Source: a phage. From it: a DNA stretch of 64,000 nucleotides. The position numbers and the translations under genes were made by a program. Shown here in pieces: positions 12,796-31,093 of the stretch. The notes under the pieces were generated by a model that ran no database searches, was not told the origin of the DNA, and was given only the letters and a program-made list of their open reading frames with translations. The stretch lies in sequence record PZ445551.1; one strand, 5' to 3'. The stretch's first letter is position 1. Each line of letters begins with the position of its first letter.

Positions 12796-12816
12796 TTCGT
12801 GTTTTTATAGGTGTGT

Positions 12817-12930
12817 TAATGAGAATCATTTTCGTTTGTAAATGAGAATCATTATCATTTAACTATGTAAGTGATAATCATTCTCAGTAAGAGAATGAGA
12901 ATCCTTAGCAAATGAGAATTTTCTCATTTA
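12817..12930. promoter_or_regulatory. cluster of five Fur-box-like palindromic sites
   Basis: AATGAGAATCATTATCATT, GTGATAATCATTCTC, AATGAGAATTTTCTCATT and related; near-matches to GATAATGATAATCATTATC. Confidence 0.45.
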
Positions 12931-23585: not shown

Positions 23586-23615
23586 CAGGGCGCACAAAGC
23601 GCCCTTTCTTTTTAC
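23586..23615 (+). terminator. rho-independent terminator
   Basis: Hairpin GGGCGCACAAAGCGCCC followed by TTTCTTTTT. Confidence 0.6.
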
Positions 23616-23817
23616 CTAAATAAAGATGATAGCTTTTACCTATCAAAAACGTTCACCGAAAAAAGTGAATAGATCGCGGTATCGAGCTAATCAAGGAGCA
23701 GATGAACAACCATACCATGAAGATCATAAGGCGCTTACAACGTGTTTTAGACCGCTTATTTTTAATTTCTCAATGTAACTATCTGGCAAAAACAGCCTTT
23801 TTCTTGTCTTTCCTCTT

Positions 23818-23895
23818 AAATGATAATCATTCTTATTTATAGCTGATTATTTATGCAATAAACTGAATAATGCAATAATGATAATCATTCTTAAC
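23818..23895. promoter_or_regulatory. two Fur-box-like sites
   Basis: AAATGATAATCATTCTTA and AATAATGATAATCATTCTTAAC. Confidence 0.45.
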
Positions 23896-24260
23896 TTATG
23901 ACCATCTAACCTATAAAATAATAAGTTATCTAACTAAATTAAAACTAATTATCTCACCTTTATTTATAACTTACTGTTACTATCTCATTGATAACCTTAT
24001 ATTAAACAACAATAACCAATATAAATCATTACTAAGCTAAATATAATCTATCTAACCTTTAAAACTATAACTATAATCTATCGAATTGTTGCACAAAGTA
24101 ACTATTAAATTGTTAGTAACATTACTAAATAATTAATATCCTATCTATTTATGATCTAATCTTTATCTTCCTATCTATTACCTAAATAATCATTTCATAC
24201 AGTAATCATTTCATACAATAATTATAACAAGAAATATAATTCGCAAGCGTATCATTAGCA

Positions 24261-24430
24261 GCCTATGCCGGACACATAGGCGGCTAATAATAACGCAACT
24301 ACACACCCCACATAATAACCATCACCGATAGTTATTATTTGTGCTTATGTAGCTTGCAACAATTGCAAGCGCAACAATATACATGGTATATTGTATCCCT
24401 TACATTGTTGCGGTGCGTTATTATTAGCTA
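24261..24430. repeat. nested palindromes flanked by perfect 15-bp inverted repeat
   Basis: GCTAATAATAACGCA ... TGCGTTATTATTAGC enclosing GCTTGCAACAATTGCAAGC and CAATATACATGGTATATTG; also GCCTATG..CATAGGC. Confidence 0.6.
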
Positions 24431-24757
24431 ATGTTTAGAACATTGGCTATAATATAAGCTAAGTAATAAGCTATGCAATAATAAACATGGTGAATAATGA
24501 CATTGATGATCATAATGCGCCACCTTCCAGGGGGCGCTATGTGAACACAAAGAAATCTTTCTTGTCAAGAAAAAATATTGCCATTATTGCGCAAAATTAT
24601 TTATATCTGAATAGATGATTTTTCATACTATTGCCCCATATAACATACCTCATTTGTTGAGCATAGTTATAGCCTATTTGTTGAGCCTACTTTCTTAAAA
24701 GCGCAATAAATCAGAATTATCTTGATTTTTAGTCTGTTTTATAGTATAGAAAGTATG

Positions 24758-24778
24758 CAAATGATAATCATTATCAGC
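24758..24778. promoter_or_regulatory. Fur-box-like site (best match)
   Basis: CAAATGATAATCATTATCAGC, about 17 of 19 matches to GATAATGATAATCATTATC. Confidence 0.45.
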
Positions 24779-24940
24779 TATCTTCCACGGGTAGCACTAT
24801 TTCACGCCAGATCATTTCATTTGGCAAGGTGTATATAGATGTTTAGACTTGCCAAGCCATTGATTTACTTAGAATTTATCTGTTTTGTTGTGAGTAGAGC
24901 CTTTCTTGCTCAGAAAATAATCAAAAGTCTTATAAGTCAT

Positions 24941-24977
24941 TGAATGATAATGCAAATGATAATTATTCTCATTGATA
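24941..24977. promoter_or_regulatory. Fur-box-like palindromic site
   Basis: TGAATGATAATGCAAATGATAATTATTCTCATTGATA. Confidence 0.4.
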
Positions 24978-25090
24978 TTTGAGGGGGACGGTCGGCAGAA
25001 ATCGGGGGGCGCTGAAAATCGCGTTAAGCACCTCTCGCAAGCGAGCAGTATTTTGCGGCAAGTTATTGATATTATTGGCTTTACGCTTAT

Positions 25091-25195
25091 GAAAAGGGGG
25101 TGTGTCGAAATAAATCGGGTATACCGGAAAATTTTTGTGGCATAGATATTTATTTGTCTATATTATGTACAAAAGGGTGTGTTAAAAATATTAGG
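25091..25195 (+). promoter_or_regulatory. two tandem copies of AAAAGGG(G)TGTGT-AAATA-GGTATA motif (candidate phage-specific promoter)
   Basis: GAAAAGGGGGTGTGTCGAAATAAATCGGGTATACC and CAAAAGGGTGTGTTAAAAATATTAGGTATATA, about 80 bp apart, upstream of cluster starting 25333. Confidence 0.35.
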
Positions 25196-25332
25196 TATAT
25201 ATAGAATAATTGATAGGGAAATCCTATACTAATTCCTCCATTAATGATGTTTCTATGTTACTGTTCTTGTAACAGATGAAAAGACGCTGTATGATGTGTG
25301 GCATGAAACGTAAATTTATAAAGGAGTCTGAT

Positions 25333-25692
25333 ATGTGTGTTCCTCTTAGCAGTCCACTGCTGTTAGAATTTTACAAAGCATGGATGGAAGATCATTCCTC
25401 AATGCATCGTGAGAATGTTGGTTTGTGTAATTGCCTTATGGATTACCTGGCAACCACTATGTCAAAGAAAAAACCTACGGAAGAAGATATAGAATATTTC
25501 AAGATGGTTCGTAGCAAAACGCTGGAAGAGATGAAACTGCAATTCACGTGTGCTGGGCTATCCTCCTTTCTACCCTTTAATTATGATCTTCTGTGTTATG
25601 AAGATGAAGGTAAGACACATTCTTGCCATACCAACCCAAAGAGATTGCAGTGGGTGAAAGATCGTATTGCCGATTCATGCAAGGGTGTGTAG
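25333..25692 (+). CDS. paralogous family A protein (Cys/His-rich), copy 1
   Basis: Shares L.FY..W, GLC.CL.D, F.CAGL...PFN and CH.N..R.QWV.DRI with ORFs at 25839, 28130, 29408; start refined with SD AAAGGAG. Confidence 0.6.
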   Translation: MCVPLSSPLLLEFYKAWMEDHSSMHRENVGLCNCLMDYLATTMSKKKPTEEDIEYFKMVRSKTLEEMKLQFTCAGLSSFLPFNYDLLCYEDEGKTHSCHTNPKRLQWVKDRIADSCKGV

Positions 25693-25693
25693 A

Positions 25694-25849
25694 ATGTTGG
25701 AATTGATTGGGATAGTTTGGTTAATGATAAAAGCAGGTTTCGTCGGTTTCGGACTTCTTATAATTTTGTGTATGTTCCTTAGTGCAATACAGGCATTCTT
25801 TTATCTGCTAGGTAGAATACTTAAGTTGGGAGGTGATAATGAAAAGTAA
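25694..25849 (+). CDS. small membrane protein (51 aa)
   Basis: Two hydrophobic helices; start refined to MLELIGIV. Confidence 0.45.
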   Translation: MLELIGIVWLMIKAGFVGFGLLIILCMFLSAIQAFFYLLGRILKLGGDNEK

Positions 25850-26207
25850 TATTCCGTTGAGTAGTGCAGCTTTAATACGATTCTATAAAGCATGGATTGC
25901 CAACCATCCTGCAATGAATCGCACAACGAGTGGCTTATGTGGTTGTCTGGTAGATTATGTAGATGATTTTGTTGGTGAGATAACTAGAGAAGAAGATAAA
26001 AGATGGCGTGATCGTTTGTTGGATAGTTTGAAATACGAAATGAGGAAACAATTTACATGTGCAGGACTGGACTACAATCTTCCGTTCAATGCAGATTGCA
26101 TGGATTACCTTTCAGAGTGTATAGACTTGGCGTGTCATACCAACACGTTACGTCTTCAATGGGTGAAAGACAGAATCGAAGATGCAAATAATGCTTGCAT
26201 TGAATAG
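25839..26207 (+). CDS. paralogous family A protein, copy 2
   Basis: Conserved family A motifs; SD GGGAGGTG upstream. Confidence 0.6.
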   Translation: MKSNIPLSSAALIRFYKAWIANHPAMNRTTSGLCGCLVDYVDDFVGEITREEDKRWRDRLLDSLKYEMRKQFTCAGLDYNLPFNADCMDYLSECIDLACHTNTLRLQWVKDRIEDANNACIE

Positions 26208-26277
26208 AAATGTCTGTACACTGTGTTCCATAAGATATACAATATCGCGCATAACAAACTACTAATGAGAGGTGTAA

Positions 26278-26736
26278 ATGAAAACTGTATCTTTGTATCT
26301 TGCTAACACGGAGCGTGTACATAATCTTGTAAAAGAATGCGGTGTGAGTGTTCAATTTAATACAGGAAAGCCTTCCGTGGTGACAGGCAGTGAGATATGT
26401 GTTATTGATTTCCTCAATGAATATTTTCGTGGAAAACCTATTGCTCGTCACTTCATTCAAGAAATGCGAGATGTACTACAGGCTTATGAATTCTACCCTG
26501 AAGTTTGTGAACGCTATGAAACGATTCTTAGCTCTGTAGAAGATCCAGATACTAGTGAAACAGGTGCTTCCCACTTGCTGTGGATGTTGAATGAAATTCA
26601 GGATGGGTGTAATGGTATGTCTGAAACCAAACGCCATCGTTGGCTAGGCTATATTCAGGGTGTTATGGTTATGAAAAACCTTATTACAGTGAATGATGAA
26701 CGTAACGCTACACGCCCAGTCTTTAATGGAGCATAA
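26278..26736 (+). CDS. hypothetical protein (152 aa)
   Basis: ORF with SD TGAGAGGTG. Confidence 0.55.
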   Translation: MKTVSLYLANTERVHNLVKECGVSVQFNTGKPSVVTGSEICVIDFLNEYFRGKPIARHFIQEMRDVLQAYEFYPEVCERYETILSSVEDPDTSETGASHLLWMLNEIQDGCNGMSETKRHRWLGYIQGVMVMKNLITVNDERNATRPVFNGA

Positions 26737-26737
26737 C

Positions 26738-26953
26738 ATGAAAAGCATTAGGGTGTGTATCGAAAATAATTGTGGTTATCTGGGGTTGACACACGTCGCT
26801 TTCCCTCTTATATTGGATGCCGATATAGCTTACAGCGGAGTTGCTTATGTGTCATTCAAAACAATGAGCCAAGTACCTGGCTGGAATTGGGAAGTGGTTG
26901 ATGTTGTTGAAGGAGAAGACTATGTTTTCCTTCCACACGAATATACAGTTTAA
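26738..26953 (+). CDS. hypothetical protein (71 aa)
   Basis: Start refined to MKSIRVCI. Confidence 0.5.
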   Translation: MKSIRVCIENNCGYLGLTHVAFPLILDADIAYSGVAYVSFKTMSQVPGWNWEVVDVVEGEDYVFLPHEYTV

Positions 26954-26967
26954 AAGAGGAAAAGAAG

Positions 26968-27144
26968 ATGGATAAACAAACTACTATGTACTTAGTAACA
27001 AAGAATACCCCAGGCTGGAGCCAATGCAGCACTGTTCCTTATAAGATCTGTGCAACATTAGAACTAGCACAACGTGCAGAAGCAGAAGTGAATGCCATGC
27101 AATACAGCTATGGTGAAATCATTCCTTTTACTCTTGAACAATAA
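26968..27144 (+). CDS. small protein (about 58 aa)
   Basis: Not in ORF track; SD AAAGAGGAAAAGAAG. Confidence 0.4.
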   Translation: MDKQTTMYLVTKNTPGWSQCSTVPYKICATLELAQRAEAEVNAMQYSYGEIIPFTLEQ

Positions 27145-27155
27145 GGATTTGTGTA

Positions 27156-27608
27156 ATGTTTGAAATTGGTAAAGTGTATCGTTTTAAGAACCCATCTTAT
27201 ATCCGTAAGTTTGCTAACGTGTCTGAGTGCAATAGCAGGATTGCTTCTTTCTTAGGTGATTCTTATTTTCGTGTATTAGATGTGGATGATTGGTATGGTG
27301 TCACTGCTTTGCAATCCTTGGCAGGAGAACAAGAAATTATCGCTCAAAATGAAGGAGACTTTCTTCAGTGTTACACGTTGCTTGCAAAAAGTGAGTTTGA
27401 GTATTTTGTAGAAGTCTTAGAGGAAGCACCAAAAAGTAAACACGAAGAGAAATACCTGCTTGTAGTGGATGGAGTTCCGATCATGGAAACCATCTCCCGT
27501 GAGGAAGTTGAAAAAGAGGCGAAACGTTACAAACTGGATCGTACACAGAGTGTAGTTGAAATCTATTCTCTTGTTGGTGTTGCAGATATTAGTGTGAACA
27601 TCGTATAA
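27156..27608 (+). CDS. hypothetical protein (150 aa)
   Basis: ORF with SD AAGGATTTGTGTA. Confidence 0.55.
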   Translation: MFEIGKVYRFKNPSYIRKFANVSECNSRIASFLGDSYFRVLDVDDWYGVTALQSLAGEQEIIAQNEGDFLQCYTLLAKSEFEYFVEVLEEAPKSKHEEKYLLVVDGVPIMETISREEVEKEAKRYKLDRTQSVVEIYSLVGVADISVNIV

Positions 27609-27611
27609 TAT

Positions 27612-27824
27612 ATGTGTAATGACAGATACATTCTCCGTGTATCTGATAAGTCTCCTATGTTTGACTGGCGGGGCTGGTGGCTACTAGCTCCGATGCAAGG
27701 TCTGACAGACGTGGAAAAGGAGGCTTATGTGTATACAAAAGAAGAGATAGAAGATAGCCTTTATTTGACAGATAACATTAAGAATGGTATCTTTGAGTGT
27801 AAATTGAAAGGAGAGGAAGAATGA
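27612..27824 (+). CDS. hypothetical protein (70 aa)
   Basis: ORF in same-strand block. Confidence 0.5.
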   Translation: MCNDRYILRVSDKSPMFDWRGWWLLAPMQGLTDVEKEAYVYTKEEIEDSLYLTDNIKNGIFECKLKGEEE

Positions 27825-28120
27825 CTATTACAGAAAAACTGCGCTGTATTGCAAAGCAAAGTGGAGAAGGTTTATGGTTTCCTATTGAGGAAATTATTCA
27901 GGACTGTTATGATCAGGCTAAGACTGGCAAATACTCCAAAGCATTTAAACCGTCTGTTTTCGGTTTGGATGACTATCCAAAAAATGAACAAGCAAAGAAA
28001 CGACAAGTTGATTTGATTGATCTTGCTATGGAAGCACTACGAGAGCATGGGCTTAGTAAGGTGTATGCTTTAAACACCAAAGAGGGCTTTGTAGATTCAG
28101 TGATCGTAGACTGGTATTAA
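27821..28120 (+). CDS. hypothetical protein (99 aa)
   Basis: ATGA overlap with upstream gene. Confidence 0.55.
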   Translation: MTITEKLRCIAKQSGEGLWFPIEEIIQDCYDQAKTGKYSKAFKPSVFGLDDYPKNEQAKKRQVDLIDLAMEALREHGLSKVYALNTKEGFVDSVIVDWY

Positions 28121-28129
28121 GGAGAAGCC

Positions 28130-28498
28130 ATGCAAGAAAATAATAAAGTGTGTAACATGAAAAGCAGCCCCTATTTGCTACAATTTTATGAGTGGTGGTT
28201 AGAACAAGAAGATACAAACTTTAGCAAAAAGCATTATGGTCTTTGCACGTGTCTTGTAGACTTCTTATACAATATTGCTTGGATAAAAGATGTTGAGAAT
28301 GTAGCAAACCTCCAGTCCTCTGTACGAGAGGAAATGAAGGAACAGTTTAAGAAAGCAGGTTTGAACCATTTACACCCATTTAATACAGATTTCTCACATT
28401 ACTTTACGGAAACAGAGTTAGGCATTGCACACCTTAACAAAGAACGTGTACAATGGGTGATTGATCGTATTCGTGATATGGAGGAATATAATGGTTAA
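28130..28498 (+). CDS. paralogous family A protein, copy 3
   Basis: Conserved family A motifs (LLQFYEWW, GLCTCLVD, PFN, QWVIDRI); SD AAGGAGAAG. Confidence 0.6.
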   Translation: MQENNKVCNMKSSPYLLQFYEWWLEQEDTNFSKKHYGLCTCLVDFLYNIAWIKDVENVANLQSSVREEMKEQFKKAGLNHLHPFNTDFSHYFTETELGIAHLNKERVQWVIDRIRDMEEYNG

Positions 28499-28700
28499 GT
28501 TTAAAACTTTCTGTGCAATCTCTGTTTGTCTTATTCTTGCATACGTGTTATTCTCTAGTATCATTCGTTTAGGTGAGTATATGGCAAGAGAAGCTCGTGA
28601 AAGTGAAGCTAAAAAAGAACAGTGCATCGTGTTAAAGCACCAAAGGGATGCTGAAAAATTTCTTGAACAGGATTGTGGGCGCTATGTGAATTATAATTAG
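28491..28700 (+). CDS. small membrane-anchored protein, family B copy 1
   Basis: TM helix plus KEQCIVLKHQRDAEKFLEQDC motif shared with ORF at 33489; SD GGAGGAA. Confidence 0.5.
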   Translation: MVKFKTFCAISVCLILAYVLFSSIIRLGEYMAREARESEAKKEQCIVLKHQRDAEKFLEQDCGRYVNYN

Positions 28701-28709
28701 GAGGGAAGT

Positions 28710-28958
28710 ATGTTAGATATTTTTACCTTTGATCGTGTTGGTACACCGATTACCGAAGAAGAACGTACCAAAATTGAACAAGAATTGGATGCTTTACGTG
28801 CGTCTCTTACAGACACAGCCTCACTACAACGTGAAGCTGCACATCTCACAGAGATCACTGGTATTCAGTGGAGCACGGAGTGGGTTGTAATTACAATTGA
28901 AGCGGATATTTGGGGACATGAAGAGACGCTACGTACCGGAGTAGTAACGGTTTGGTGA
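28710..28958 (+). CDS. hypothetical protein (82 aa)
   Basis: SD AGGAGGGAAG upstream. Confidence 0.55.
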   Translation: MLDIFTFDRVGTPITEEERTKIEQELDALRASLTDTASLQREAAHLTEITGIQWSTEWVVITIEADIWGHEETLRTGVVTVW

Positions 28959-29004
28959 TAGATGTTATTCTTTTGTGTTTCTTGATATATAAATAGGAGG
29001 GTTT

Positions 29005-29229
29005 ATGGTAAAACGTCTGGAATGGGATGCGTGTACTGCTCACGCTTGTCACTGTAATATTGTGGAAGATCCTAATGGAGAAATGGTGTATTATGAGGAT
29101 TACGAAGCATTGCATAATGCTGTGATCGCTTTACTGGATGATATTAGCTCACGCTATCCAGGACAACAGTTTACGTGTCCACATATCCAACTATTAGCCA
29201 AACTTACGGAGTATCCAAGTGTTTCATAA
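29005..29229 (+). CDS. hypothetical protein (74 aa)
   Basis: SD AGGAGGG upstream; TATAAATA octamer immediately upstream. Confidence 0.55.
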   Translation: MVKRLEWDACTAHACHCNIVEDPNGEMVYYEDYEALHNAVIALLDDISSRYPGQQFTCPHIQLLAKLTEYPSVS

Positions 29230-29230
29230 T

Positions 29231-29398
29231 ATGGGTGTCCCTGAACAACTCCTCTTTATTGTAGGATTAGTGGGCTTATTAGCGGCTGGAGCCAAAGCCG
29301 CTTCTCACACGCATCACATAATGTTAAGATTTCTGTTCCTACTCCCTTCTATCCTTGTATTATTAGTCATATTGATTGATAACATTTTTCACAATTAA
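29231..29398 (+). CDS. small membrane protein (about 55 aa)
   Basis: Not in ORF track; two hydrophobic helices. Confidence 0.35.
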   Translation: MGVPEQLLFIVGLVGLLAAGAKAASHTHHIMLRFLFLLPSILVLLVILIDNIFHN

Positions 29399-29407
29399 GG
29401 AGAGGTT

Positions 29408-29992
29408 ATGAGTAAAATTATACCAAGCAGTTATGAATTATTGCAGTTTTATGTATATTACTTAGACTGGGTTAATAGATCGAATGTTAAAGACAATGCG
29501 ATGTTTAGTAAAAACATCTGTTTAACAGAAAGTATCTTCCGTTATTGGCACACAGGCAGAAAGTGTACACACAGTGAAGCTATGCGTATTGTAGGTGAAT
29601 ACCTGGAGCAATTGCAAAAAGCAGAACTTCCTGTCCTTCACCCATTCAACGAATCTAAAGAAGAATTAGAACAAGAGTGTAGAGAAGGTAAGTGCCATTT
29701 AAATGAAAAACGTATCGAATGGGTGAGGCAACGTTTAGCCGATGCAGGAAAGACTCCTAGTGACTCTGACTATACGTGGTATGATGTAGAGGGTTTAGTT
29801 CAAGGTTTTGAGGCTTGTGCTATAGATAATACCAACTTTGCCAAAGTTTTATGTGAGGCTTATGATCTGGCAGATAAAATCCGAAATCACGGATGGAAAC
29901 AAGAGCATAAAGAATCATATGAACGCCTTGACAAGATTTTCAAACAGATCTATTCTAACCACAAGAAGATGTTCCAAATGGAGGATGTGTAA
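29408..29992 (+). CDS. paralogous family A protein, copy 4, with C-terminal extension
   Basis: Family A motifs in N-terminal 120 aa (LLQFYVYYLDW, PFN, EWVRQRL); SD AAGGAGAGG. Confidence 0.6.
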   Translation: MSKIIPSSYELLQFYVYYLDWVNRSNVKDNAMFSKNICLTESIFRYWHTGRKCTHSEAMRIVGEYLEQLQKAELPVLHPFNESKEELEQECREGKCHLNEKRIEWVRQRLADAGKTPSDSDYTWYDVEGLVQGFEACAIDNTNFAKVLCEAYDLADKIRNHGWKQEHKESYERLDKIFKQIYSNHKKMFQMEDV

Positions 29993-30678
29993 TGAAAGAG
30001 ATTATGTTTGAAGGGCATTGTTACGAAGTTCCAGACAATGCAAATTTCATGGCTCGTGATATCACTGGAGATGTGTTCTGGTTTGAAGATGAACCTATGT
30101 TTTCTTCGAACAAACACTGGTTTTCACAACAATCTTCTTCGGAAAATATGACTTTTGGCTACGTAGAGTCTAAAGTACGTTGCAAAGCAGCTTCTTCTTT
30201 GGTAAAAATTTCCCAAGATGACCAAGAAAATACTCAAGATGTTGTTAGTGCGCTACTGAAGTACATTGCAGAACTTGAGAAGAAAATTAAAGAAGCAGAA
30301 ACTAAGGTGAAAGCACGATCAGCAATCATCGAAACTATGTCTGAACGTATTTTAGAACTAGAAGATTTGTGTGGAGAGGCTTATCAAGTGGTTGGTGCGC
30401 TGGCGTGTGAAGCACAAATGTTTGAAACTTCAGAACAAGTTTCGCATATGTTAGATAATTTGAGTGAATGTAAAATGATTCATGATGATGTATTGCCATT
30501 TTGTTGCAATGTTAACAAAACAGAGCAAACACAAGATTCAGAAACAGTTTATGTTCCGCTAATGTGTGTTCCAGATCATCTAAAAGGTGTATTCTCTTGT
30601 AAATGGTCGCTGTTGAGCGTTACTAATTGTGGTGAAAACTATTCTGCCAACATTGAATTGCTAAAACACGTTAAATAA
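29992..30678 (+). CDS. hypothetical protein with central coiled-coil (228 aa)
   Basis: ATGA overlap; heptad-like charged segment. Confidence 0.55.
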   Translation: MKEIMFEGHCYEVPDNANFMARDITGDVFWFEDEPMFSSNKHWFSQQSSSENMTFGYVESKVRCKAASSLVKISQDDQENTQDVVSALLKYIAELEKKIKEAETKVKARSAIIETMSERILELEDLCGEAYQVVGALACEAQMFETSEQVSHMLDNLSECKMIHDDVLPFCCNVNKTEQTQDSETVYVPLMCVPDHLKGVFSCKWSLLSVTNCGENYSANIELLKHVK

Positions 30679-30688
30679 GGAGAGTAAT

Positions 30689-31093
30689 ATGTGGTCTGTT
30701 AAAATCAAATATAATGCGCAGTATTATGGTGGAAAGCCTTACGAAGTTGTTATTTGTGATTGTATCTCTAAAGAAGTTGCACAGCTTTGTGGCGCTGGTG
30801 TTAGTGAAGCTATGAACAAAATGCATAACTCTACTGTGCGTTACTTGGATCAAGATATTCCAGAAGATGTAAATGACTATGCTTACGAAGTTATTTACAG
30901 TGAAGGTAAGAAGCTCTCTATTGAAGATGCACTTAAAGCACTACCTGCTATGTGCAGCCCAACACCAAAAGCAGTTAAAGAGATTTTACCAGAATCCAAC
31001 CCCGATGAATATGCTGCTATGGTTGCTTCGGACATGTGGAATCTCTGTCGAGAAACTATGATTAAAAATCTGGTGGAAATGGCGCATGAGTAA
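30689..31093 (+). CDS. hypothetical protein (134 aa)
   Basis: SD AAGGAGAG upstream. Confidence 0.55.
   Translation: MWSVKIKYNAQYYGGKPYEVVICDCISKEVAQLCGAGVSEAMNKMHNSTVRYLDQDIPEDVNDYAYEVIYSEGKKLSIEDALKALPAMCSPTPKAVKEILPESNPDEYAAMVASDMWNLCRETMIKNLVEMAHE

Follow-up and report, generated by a model that had tools for sequence, protein, structure and literature searches.

A stretch of phage DNA of 64,000 nucleotides (nt; record PZ445551.1), referred to here at its full length as the window, contains four genes on the + strand between positions 25,333 and 29,992 that belong to one paralogous family. This family, designated family A with the copies A1 to A4, consists of intact genes under purifying selection which encode small proteins and start a short way inside what is presumed to be the physical left terminus of the genome. 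Positions 25000–30200 of the window match Escherichia phage VivaForever (PP925843.1, 87201–82001, reverse strand) with 100% identity, and many Justusliebigvirus phages, including the BASEL phage Bas61 EmilieFrey, with 95–97.5%. VivaForever, a strictly lytic phage of Escherichia coli, is placed in Justusliebigvirus, the phi92-like phages of subfamily Stephanstirmvirinae. All four genes are labelled 'hypothetical protein' in VivaForever and in Eryne, while their orthologs in EmilieFrey and phi92 are annotated as 'hypothetical' or 'conserved hypothetical'. The genes and the two parts of A4 are listed below with lengths in amino acids (aa), expectation values (E) of matches to profiles or to the family hidden Markov model (HMM), and the ratio of the proportions of nonsynonymous and synonymous differences (pN/pS).

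25333–25692, + strand: A1, family A copy 1, 119 aa; AAGGAG 7 nt before the ATG; protein gene that comes first after the phi92-type terminal repeat; phrog_2510 E 4.5e-22; intact in 7 relatives; pN/pS 0.21
25839–26207, + strand: A2, family A copy 2, 122 aa; GGGAGG before the ATG; phrog_2510 E 6e-24; pN/pS 0.24
28130–28498, + strand: A3, family A copy 3, 122 aa; ortholog of phi92 gp006 (annotated 'conserved hypothetical protein'); phrog_2510 E 1.5e-25; pN/pS 0.09
29408–29992, + strand: A4, family A copy 4, 194 aa; ortholog of phi92 gp010; phrog_2510 E 7e-18, phrog_27059 over the full length, E 9e-140; pN/pS 0.09
29408–29749, + strand: N-terminal family domain of A4, ~aa 1–114 (HMM domain aa 7–113, E 4.8e-23)
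29750–29992, + strand: C-terminal extension of A4, ~80 aa, a separate module with a low-confidence three-helix prediction

Every one of the four ATGs is preceded at 6–8 nt by a Shine–Dalgarno (SD) site (AAGGAG or GGGAGG); such a site was also looked for at the longer alternative starts 25276 and 25833, and none is present. A2 has a copy of 96.5% identity in the Phapecoctavirus phage phiWec181. A4 exceeds the other copies by ~72 C-terminal residues, in agreement with the about 70 reported in the initial annotation of this DNA. By tblastn, the extension occurs almost only in Justusliebigvirus, with weak matches (33–36% identity) in a Cronobacter phage and in Escherichia phage AV124; it also matches weakly other PHROGs of unknown function, and a word-index search with it returned no candidates.

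Paralogy, integrity and breadth of the family

The existence of a four-member paralogous family at these + strand positions, proposed in the initial annotation, is borne out. With the 634 stop-to-stop open reading frames (ORFs) of the window as background, among which the best unrelated ORF had E>0.3, pairwise phmmer comparisons gave E values of 1e-31 (A1–A2), 1e-21 (A1–A3), 1e-16 (A2–A3) and 1e-5 (A2–A4), A4 matching the other three copies at 4e-10 to 1e-5. In a four-way alignment the protein identity to A1 is 46% for A2, 42% for A3 and 28% for A4. No similarity among the four copies can be aligned any more at the DNA level, thus the duplications are old. No fifth copy was detected, as the family HMM finds exactly four in the window and tblastn gives four sites across the complete genome of VivaForever. 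Family A is a true multi-copy family of the phage accessory region. The initial annotation had also described shared motifs with conserved Cys and His in all four copies. Their order is indeed the same throughout, but the Cys-bearing versions are complete only in A1 and A2: A3 contains neither the Cys of 'TCAG' nor the Cys of 'CH', while A4 does not have 'GLC.C' as written, and its first motif is interrupted by an insertion. Across A1–A4 a single Cys and a single His are invariant.

Orthologs were taken from nine related loci (Eryne, EmilieFrey, phi92, phiWec181, inny, EC_OE_11, AMO3598, ESCO8 and JLBYU50). The 7–8 orthologs available per gene contain no stops and no indels and are 94–100% identical, and the summed Nei–Gojobori pN/pS ratios of 0.09–0.24 (listed by gene above) fall in a range like that of eleven neighbouring genes with a computable ratio (0.06–0.25). 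Intact orthologs together with such ratios indicate functional genes; A1–A4 are under ordinary purifying selection and are neither pseudogenes nor fast-evolving. The rapid divergence suggested in the initial annotation has accordingly left no sign, the orthologs being nearly identical and the paralogs old, and the pseudogenisation named there as a ground for refutation is absent from the relatives examined. Chance resemblance of motifs, or a set of decaying copies, could hardly be reconciled with pairwise E values down to 1e-31 and with genes that possess SD sites and prove intact and under purifying selection in all the relatives examined; this explanation was rejected and is barely conceivable.

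The family extends far beyond the Justusliebigvirus phages. A word-indexed search with the four-sequence profile retrieved 30 clusters, while HMMER, run exhaustively with a profile built from 17 sequences, retrieved 1,196 cluster representatives (50% identity) at E≤1e-3, 459 of them at E≤1e-10. A typical member is a single domain of 95–125 aa. Thirteen retrieved proteins contain two or three tandem domains, among them a three-domain protein of the jumbo Burkholderia phage BcepSaruman, and other members are fusions to small phage modules with no known function (DUF551 and phrog_60, 660, 3323, 5117 and 8589). The named sources are without exception phages or prophages of Proteobacteria, with hosts in Escherichia, Salmonella, Klebsiella, Citrobacter, Yersinia, Erwinia, Pectobacterium, Rhizobium, Burkholderia, Achromobacter, Delftia and Pseudomonas. 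Members occur in T7-like, N4-like, T1-like, T4-like, rV5-like, phi92-like and jumbo phages as well as inside 'EaA' proteins of P22-like phages, and only one of 72,556 plasmids gave a match.

The spread over 1,196 clusters and many phage types does not agree with a lineage-specific expansion, as had been suggested. The expansion itself is nevertheless real in part, because independent local expansions are found: the T4-like Yersinia phage JC221 has four adjacent copies, and in phiWec181 three of the seven copies in the genome are adjacent. In a neighbour-joining tree the four JC221 copies cluster together, A1 and A2 group with phiWec181 copies, A3 lies nearby and A4 elsewhere, which indicates that expansion is recurrent and partly local and that A4 is an old or separately acquired lineage.

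Both the genes and the family are already present in public databases as uncharacterised entries. Family A corresponds to PHROG 2510, 6418 and 27059 and to pVOG VOG7392, all described as 'unknown function'; A1–A4 all match the PHROG profiles significantly over the whole domain, and the VOG7392 label is carried by the orthologs in phage inny. No recurrent Pfam family, zinc-finger families included, was found in the four proteins, ten fusion proteins and 60 diverse members. NCBIfam gave only noise for family A, and the sole PADLOC match was Cas12d at noise level (E 0.007, 12 bits). No paper was found that mentions family A, its PHROG/VOG identifiers or its accessions, and the literature on EaA and on the early genes of Stephanstirmvirinae likewise yielded nothing of relevance. 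The PHROG and VOG entries are bookkeeping clusters without function, structure or literature, and say nothing of the array of paralogs, of its place at the terminus or of the anatomy of the motifs. New here are the corrected motif anatomy, the rejection of a family-wide metal site, the link to a module of EaA and the position behind the terminal repeat.

Predicted fold and conserved residues

AlphaFold2, applied to A3 with a 17-sequence alignment, gave a model with a predicted local distance difference test score (pLDDT) of 86.6 and a predicted template modelling score (pTM) of 0.79, in which residues 14–25, 31–35, 38–50, 55–75, 88–97 and 104–121 form six helices, the confidence being lowest in the variable connector. 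The model of A4 contains the same six-helix domain plus three helices for the extension (pLDDT ~50–67). Foldseek searches against the PDB found nothing below E=1 and a PDB sequence-profile search nothing below E=0.3, while Foldseek against BFVD matched only uncharacterised proteins of Proteobacteria phages. Family A is thus modelled as a cytoplasmic six-helix domain, specific to phages and ~105 residues long. An assignment to HEPN-like RNases was rejected: the family motif is H.N..R and not the R-x(4-6)-H of HEPN proteins, and the only match to HepT is weak (E 0.045) and covers aa 61–89 of protein P0026, a segment that appears to lie outside the H.N..R motif region.

Conservation was determined from 186 aligned domains plus a 60-sequence alignment, with A3 numbering. 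Near-invariant residues are S13, L16, F19, Y20 and W23 in or just before helix 1; G37, L38, C39 and L42 at the start of helix 3; E68, M69, Q72, F73, A76, G77 and L78 at the end of helix 4; P83, F84 and N85 in a loop; Y91 and E94 in helix 5; and N103, R106, W109, V110 and R113 in the cap and body of helix 6. Identity reaches 100% for R106, 98% for W109, 97% for C39, 93% for Q72, 92% for N103 and 91% for E68, and column entropy stays below 1 bit at the motif positions. Residues 43–67 are hypervariable (3.5–4.0 bits per column), with indels and length variation. The resulting signature (SS..L..FY..W, GLC.N/C.L, E[ML]..QF..AGL....PFN, Y..E and H.N..R..WV) is complete in A1–A3, while A4 keeps FY, W, E..Q, PFN, CH.N..R..WV and one Cys and has lost the G-L of GLC. 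On a helical wheel with family-averaged hydrophobicity, C39 lies with L42 and L46 on the hydrophobic face of helix 3, so the invariant Cys is probably buried, and E68, Q72, Y91, E94, R106, W109 and R113 lie on one flank of helices 4–6. This flank may represent either polar residues that form a network in the interior or a conserved site of contact.

The initial annotation had read the Cys and His residues as a sign of a small metal-binding (zinc) fold. This idea draws on A1 and A2, which possess Cys at four motif positions together with the His, a pattern kept in their clade. The full C-C-C-C-H pattern is present in 15/186 domains, 14 of which belong to the A1/A2 clade, the exception being P0147. 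Across the family the picture is different. The first Cys (that of GLC, 97%) is the sole near-invariant Cys column; the second Cys column has Cys in 19% and Asn in 66% of the domains, the Cys of 'TCAG' is found in 11% and the Cys before the His in 54%. The His column has His in 72% and Tyr in 12%, and Y, R, P, S or L replaces His in 28% of domains. A3 and A4 each have two or more of the proposed ligands missing, and 22/186 domains have a single Cys and no His. The three to four conserved Cys/His ligand positions expected of a zinc protein are therefore not found, nor is a metal-organised fold: the domain is predicted confidently as all-helical without metal, with no strands, zinc ribbon or knuckle, and zinc-finger families give no match, recurrent Pfam ones included. 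The zinc idea thus fails as a property of the family, for which it is very improbable, and is left as a possibility for the A1/A2 clade. Accordingly, a zinc-binding label is unsuitable for family A proteins.

Small Cys-rich zinc-binding proteins are known from phages, such as Lar-like restriction alleviation proteins and Ea8.5 of lambda. Family A resembles them in comprising small early phage proteins with Cys and His, but differs in having no conserved ligand set and in being predicted as all-helical. Between A3 and A4, a 74-aa Cys-rich protein (29005–29229; phrog_23083) weakly matches the 'Lar-like restriction alleviation protein' phrog_3592 (E 6e-4), and its JLBYU50 ortholog is annotated as a putative HNH endonuclease.

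Location next to the presumed terminal repeat and variation in copy number

Two further features define the setting of the array.

24684–25026, no strand assigned: counterpart of the left direct terminal repeat (343 bp) of phi92, presumed physical left genome end
25247–26156, + strand: indel block comprising A1, a short ORF for a membrane protein and the greater part of A2; VivaForever has it, phi92 lacks it

Positions 1–343 of phi92 are annotated as its left direct terminal repeat, and phi92 1–565 is 97.7% identical to window 24684–25246. The repeat equivalent ends 307 bp upstream of A1. If VivaForever ends in the same way as phi92, the physical terminus lies within the window, with A1 as the first gene behind it; judged from this similarity, the assembled sequence probably spans the physical ends of the genome. 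Terminator-like sites on the + strand were not detected between 23605 and 30179, and together with the tight packing on one strand this suggests that A1–A4 probably form one leftmost early transcription block.

The number of copies is in flux. The alignment with phi92 resumes at window 26157–26232, where the last 51 nt of A2 are kept, which points to loss of the block by deletion in phi92. A1 orthologs are found in ~35 phage records, compared with 56 for A3 and 56 for A4. Within Stephanstirmvirinae the copy number ranges from 2 (phi92, W22 and PHB05) through 3–4 up to 7 (phiWec181). JLBYU50 (locus L018, 603–998) contains one 131-aa gene which is an A1/A2 chimera, following A1 to RLQWVKDRI and then the tail of A2. 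The joint lies inside the conserved CHTN..RLQWVKDRI motif, and this gene thus points to homologous recombination between paralogs with removal of the intervening genes.

Three small ORFs of 51, 69 and 55 aa (25694–25849, 28491–28700 and 29231–29398), each with a strongly hydrophobic segment, lie beside A1/A2, A3 and A4, respectively, and are themselves under purifying selection (pN/pS 0.06–0.18). An obligatory small membrane-protein partner of family A was considered and rejected, as in EmilieFrey A1 and A2 are adjacent without the first of these small transmembrane ORFs and no such pairing is seen in other phages.

Relatives, too, have members that lie 0.4–5 kb from one end of the record or belong to early blocks. 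For phAPEC8-like and other ~150-kb E. coli myophages, matches are seen 0.4–4 kb from an end of the record (for example 361–2457). Family members are genes 2–3 of a T7-like Rhizobium phage, belong to an end-proximal block of an N4-like Erwinia phage that also holds subunit A of RNA polymerase 1 (RNAP1), and, in a T1-like Klebsiella phage, follow the helicase together with other small genes. Temperate phages have the domain between repressor/recombination genes and int, with a stand-alone copy in this region of a Citrobacter prophage. In a P22-like prophage the domain is a module (aa 89–193) of a 402-aa EaA-type protein encoded between erf/abc2 and int, and the 'EaA' of Salmonella phage SEN22 matches the module-bearing query segment aa 1–202 with 38.7% identity.

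The ea region of lambdoid phages is non-essential. EaA and the window genes are alike in that both are early, non-essential accessory genes in their settings, but EaA chains several unrelated modules, whereas the window genes are single-domain (two modules in A4) and belong to a lytic phage. The multi-module architecture and the early-left temperate position that characterise EaA are thus absent from A1–A4, and only the domain is shared. The comparison provides context rather than mechanism. The two genes after A4 (29992–30678 and 30689–31093) are annotated as 'potential Eaa-like' in phi92 and 'ead/Ea22-like' in JLBYU50. Taken with family A, these Eaa/ead-like neighbours give the left-end block of phi92-like phages several modules in common with the 'ea' accessory region of lambdoid and P22 phages.

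Several other observations concern the surroundings of the array. A 1.7-kb AT-rich stretch (23587–25330; GC content 0.34) with no credible ORFs follows a strong terminator-like hairpin at 23587–23605 and includes the counterpart of the phi92 terminal repeat. No tRNA genes and no Rfam matches were found anywhere in the window, and an upstream regulatory RNA was rejected as a candidate on the latter ground. The palindrome AATGATAATCATT recurs four times around the presumed terminus (23819, 23877, 24760 and 24955), where it lies within a longer 37-nt repeat (24497, 24755 and 24950), and an intergenic gap near 12.8 kb (12815–12882) holds a further three to four occurrences; matches to the 19-mer with ≤3 mismatches number 5 against 0.1 expected. 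The palindrome is close to the Fur-box consensus of E. coli, the best site (24757–24775) agreeing at 17/19 positions, and the sites could be host Fur sites or sites of a phage dimeric regulator. Between A2 and A3, the gene at 27156–27608 encodes a 150-aa protein whose N-terminal half weakly matches the T4 goF mRNA-metabolism-modulator PHROG (phrog_2980, E 3e-6), and it is annotated as goF in Eryne. Four GenBank records designated 'Campylobacter phage' with the host Campylobacter jejuni (MG065645, MG065689, MG065639 and MG065656) are ~97% identical to Justusliebigvirus over a 5.2-kb query and look like mislabelling or contamination.

Possible roles of family A

A constrained, dispensable and recombining array of a phage-only domain at the presumed leading end is the combination for which a host-takeover or anti-defence role is ranked first. 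Family A is tentatively regarded as an immediate-early, dispensable module of binders acting in this way, at a likelihood somewhat short of even. Since the genes lie near the presumed terminus, early entry and expression are suggested: in one rightward block from ~300 bp inside the presumed terminus, their entry into the cell and their expression would rank among the earliest. A1–A4 are accessory genes, dispensable yet selectively maintained. Their products may bind components of the host or of its defences stoichiometrically during takeover, with no metal or enzyme chemistry involved. The polar/aromatic stripe on helices 4–6 (E68, Q72, N85, Y91, E94, N103, R106, W109 and R113) may serve as a shared scaffold or contact site, while the hypervariable stretch from the end of helix 3 through the first two-thirds of helix 4, which differs between paralogs, may tune specificity.

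Genes of this kind are known at the first-entering end of lytic phages, for example gp0.3 (Ocr) of T7 and the pre-early genes of T5, which have anti-defence or takeover roles. Family A proteins are likewise small, dispensable, cytoplasmic and encoded at what is presumed to be such an end, with members at the left end of T7-like Rhizobium phages; they differ in that no sequence or fold relationship exists and that an anti-defence activity of family A is putative. DNA mimicry of the Ocr/ArdA type was rejected, because the isoelectric points (pI) of A1–A4 (5.2–6.1; family median 5.4, mildly acidic) are too high compared with about 4, and similarity is seen neither in Pfam nor in the PDB.

Several points weigh against this host-takeover or anti-defence role. 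No member has an experimental or annotated function, and the role is read entirely from context; early expression is deduced from position, and the VivaForever termini are themselves deduced by similarity to phi92. About ten polar or aromatic residues are identical from Rhizobium to E. coli phages, which is stronger conservation than a pure scaffold usually needs; a ligand or catalytic site common to all copies would explain it no less well than diverse binders would. The helical wheel fits a buried polar network and an exposed site alike.

Because this conservation of polar identities across very distant phages is unusually strong, the main rival is a single biochemical activity common to all copies, such as that of a small enzyme or of a ligand or nucleotide 'sponge', with paralogs differing only in regulation or substrate range. 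The residues proposed for such a site are C39, E68, Q72, N85, Y91, E94, H101, N103, R106 and W109. Polar positions among them are near-invariant (from R106 at 100% to E68 at 91%) and share the same flank of helices 4–6, off the fully hydrophobic face, and tandem chains of two or three domains are compatible with an oligomeric binder. However, no sequence or fold similarity to enzymes or known sponges was found, the His is replaced in 28% of domains, the Cys lies on the hydrophobic face, and a 105-residue helical bundle without a cofactor motif is an unlikely enzyme; a shared activity is on balance rather unlikely. A role internal to the phage, in early-to-middle transcription regulation, protection of DNA ends or initiation of replication near the terminus, would agree with the location, since the genes adjoin the terminal repeat and the 1.7-kb AT-rich, repeat-bearing region and neighbouring genes are annotated as putative transcription factors or regulators in relatives. 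It does not agree with the flux in copy number (2–7 copies, with two copies lost outright in close relatives) or with the spread over unrelated phage types that differ in replication and transcription strategy and over the lambdoid ea region; in addition, the mildly acidic proteins bear no DNA-binding signature. Such an internal role is considered improbable.

A broader form of the host-takeover and anti-defence reading is more doubtful than its core, and only slightly better placed than a shared activity. According to it, family A would represent a new, very abundant, phage-only fold serving as a general anti-defence or host-hijack module with a single conserved active or contact site on helices 4–6 and a hypervariable specificity segment, deployed in leading-end arrays by lytic phages and as a module of EaA by temperate ones, the paralogs neutralising different immune systems of bacteria or conserved host factors.

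Family A is among the commoner uncharacterised families of phage proteins; it occurs in most major groups of Proteobacteria phages and has no Pfam entry, solved structure or literature. Its location at the presumed first-entering end, its repeated tandem arrays, its fusions to small modules and its maintenance despite being dispensable are what would be expected of host-takeover or anti-defence genes. As the BASEL phage Bas61 carries orthologs, family A is a cheap and concrete target for screening in E. coli.

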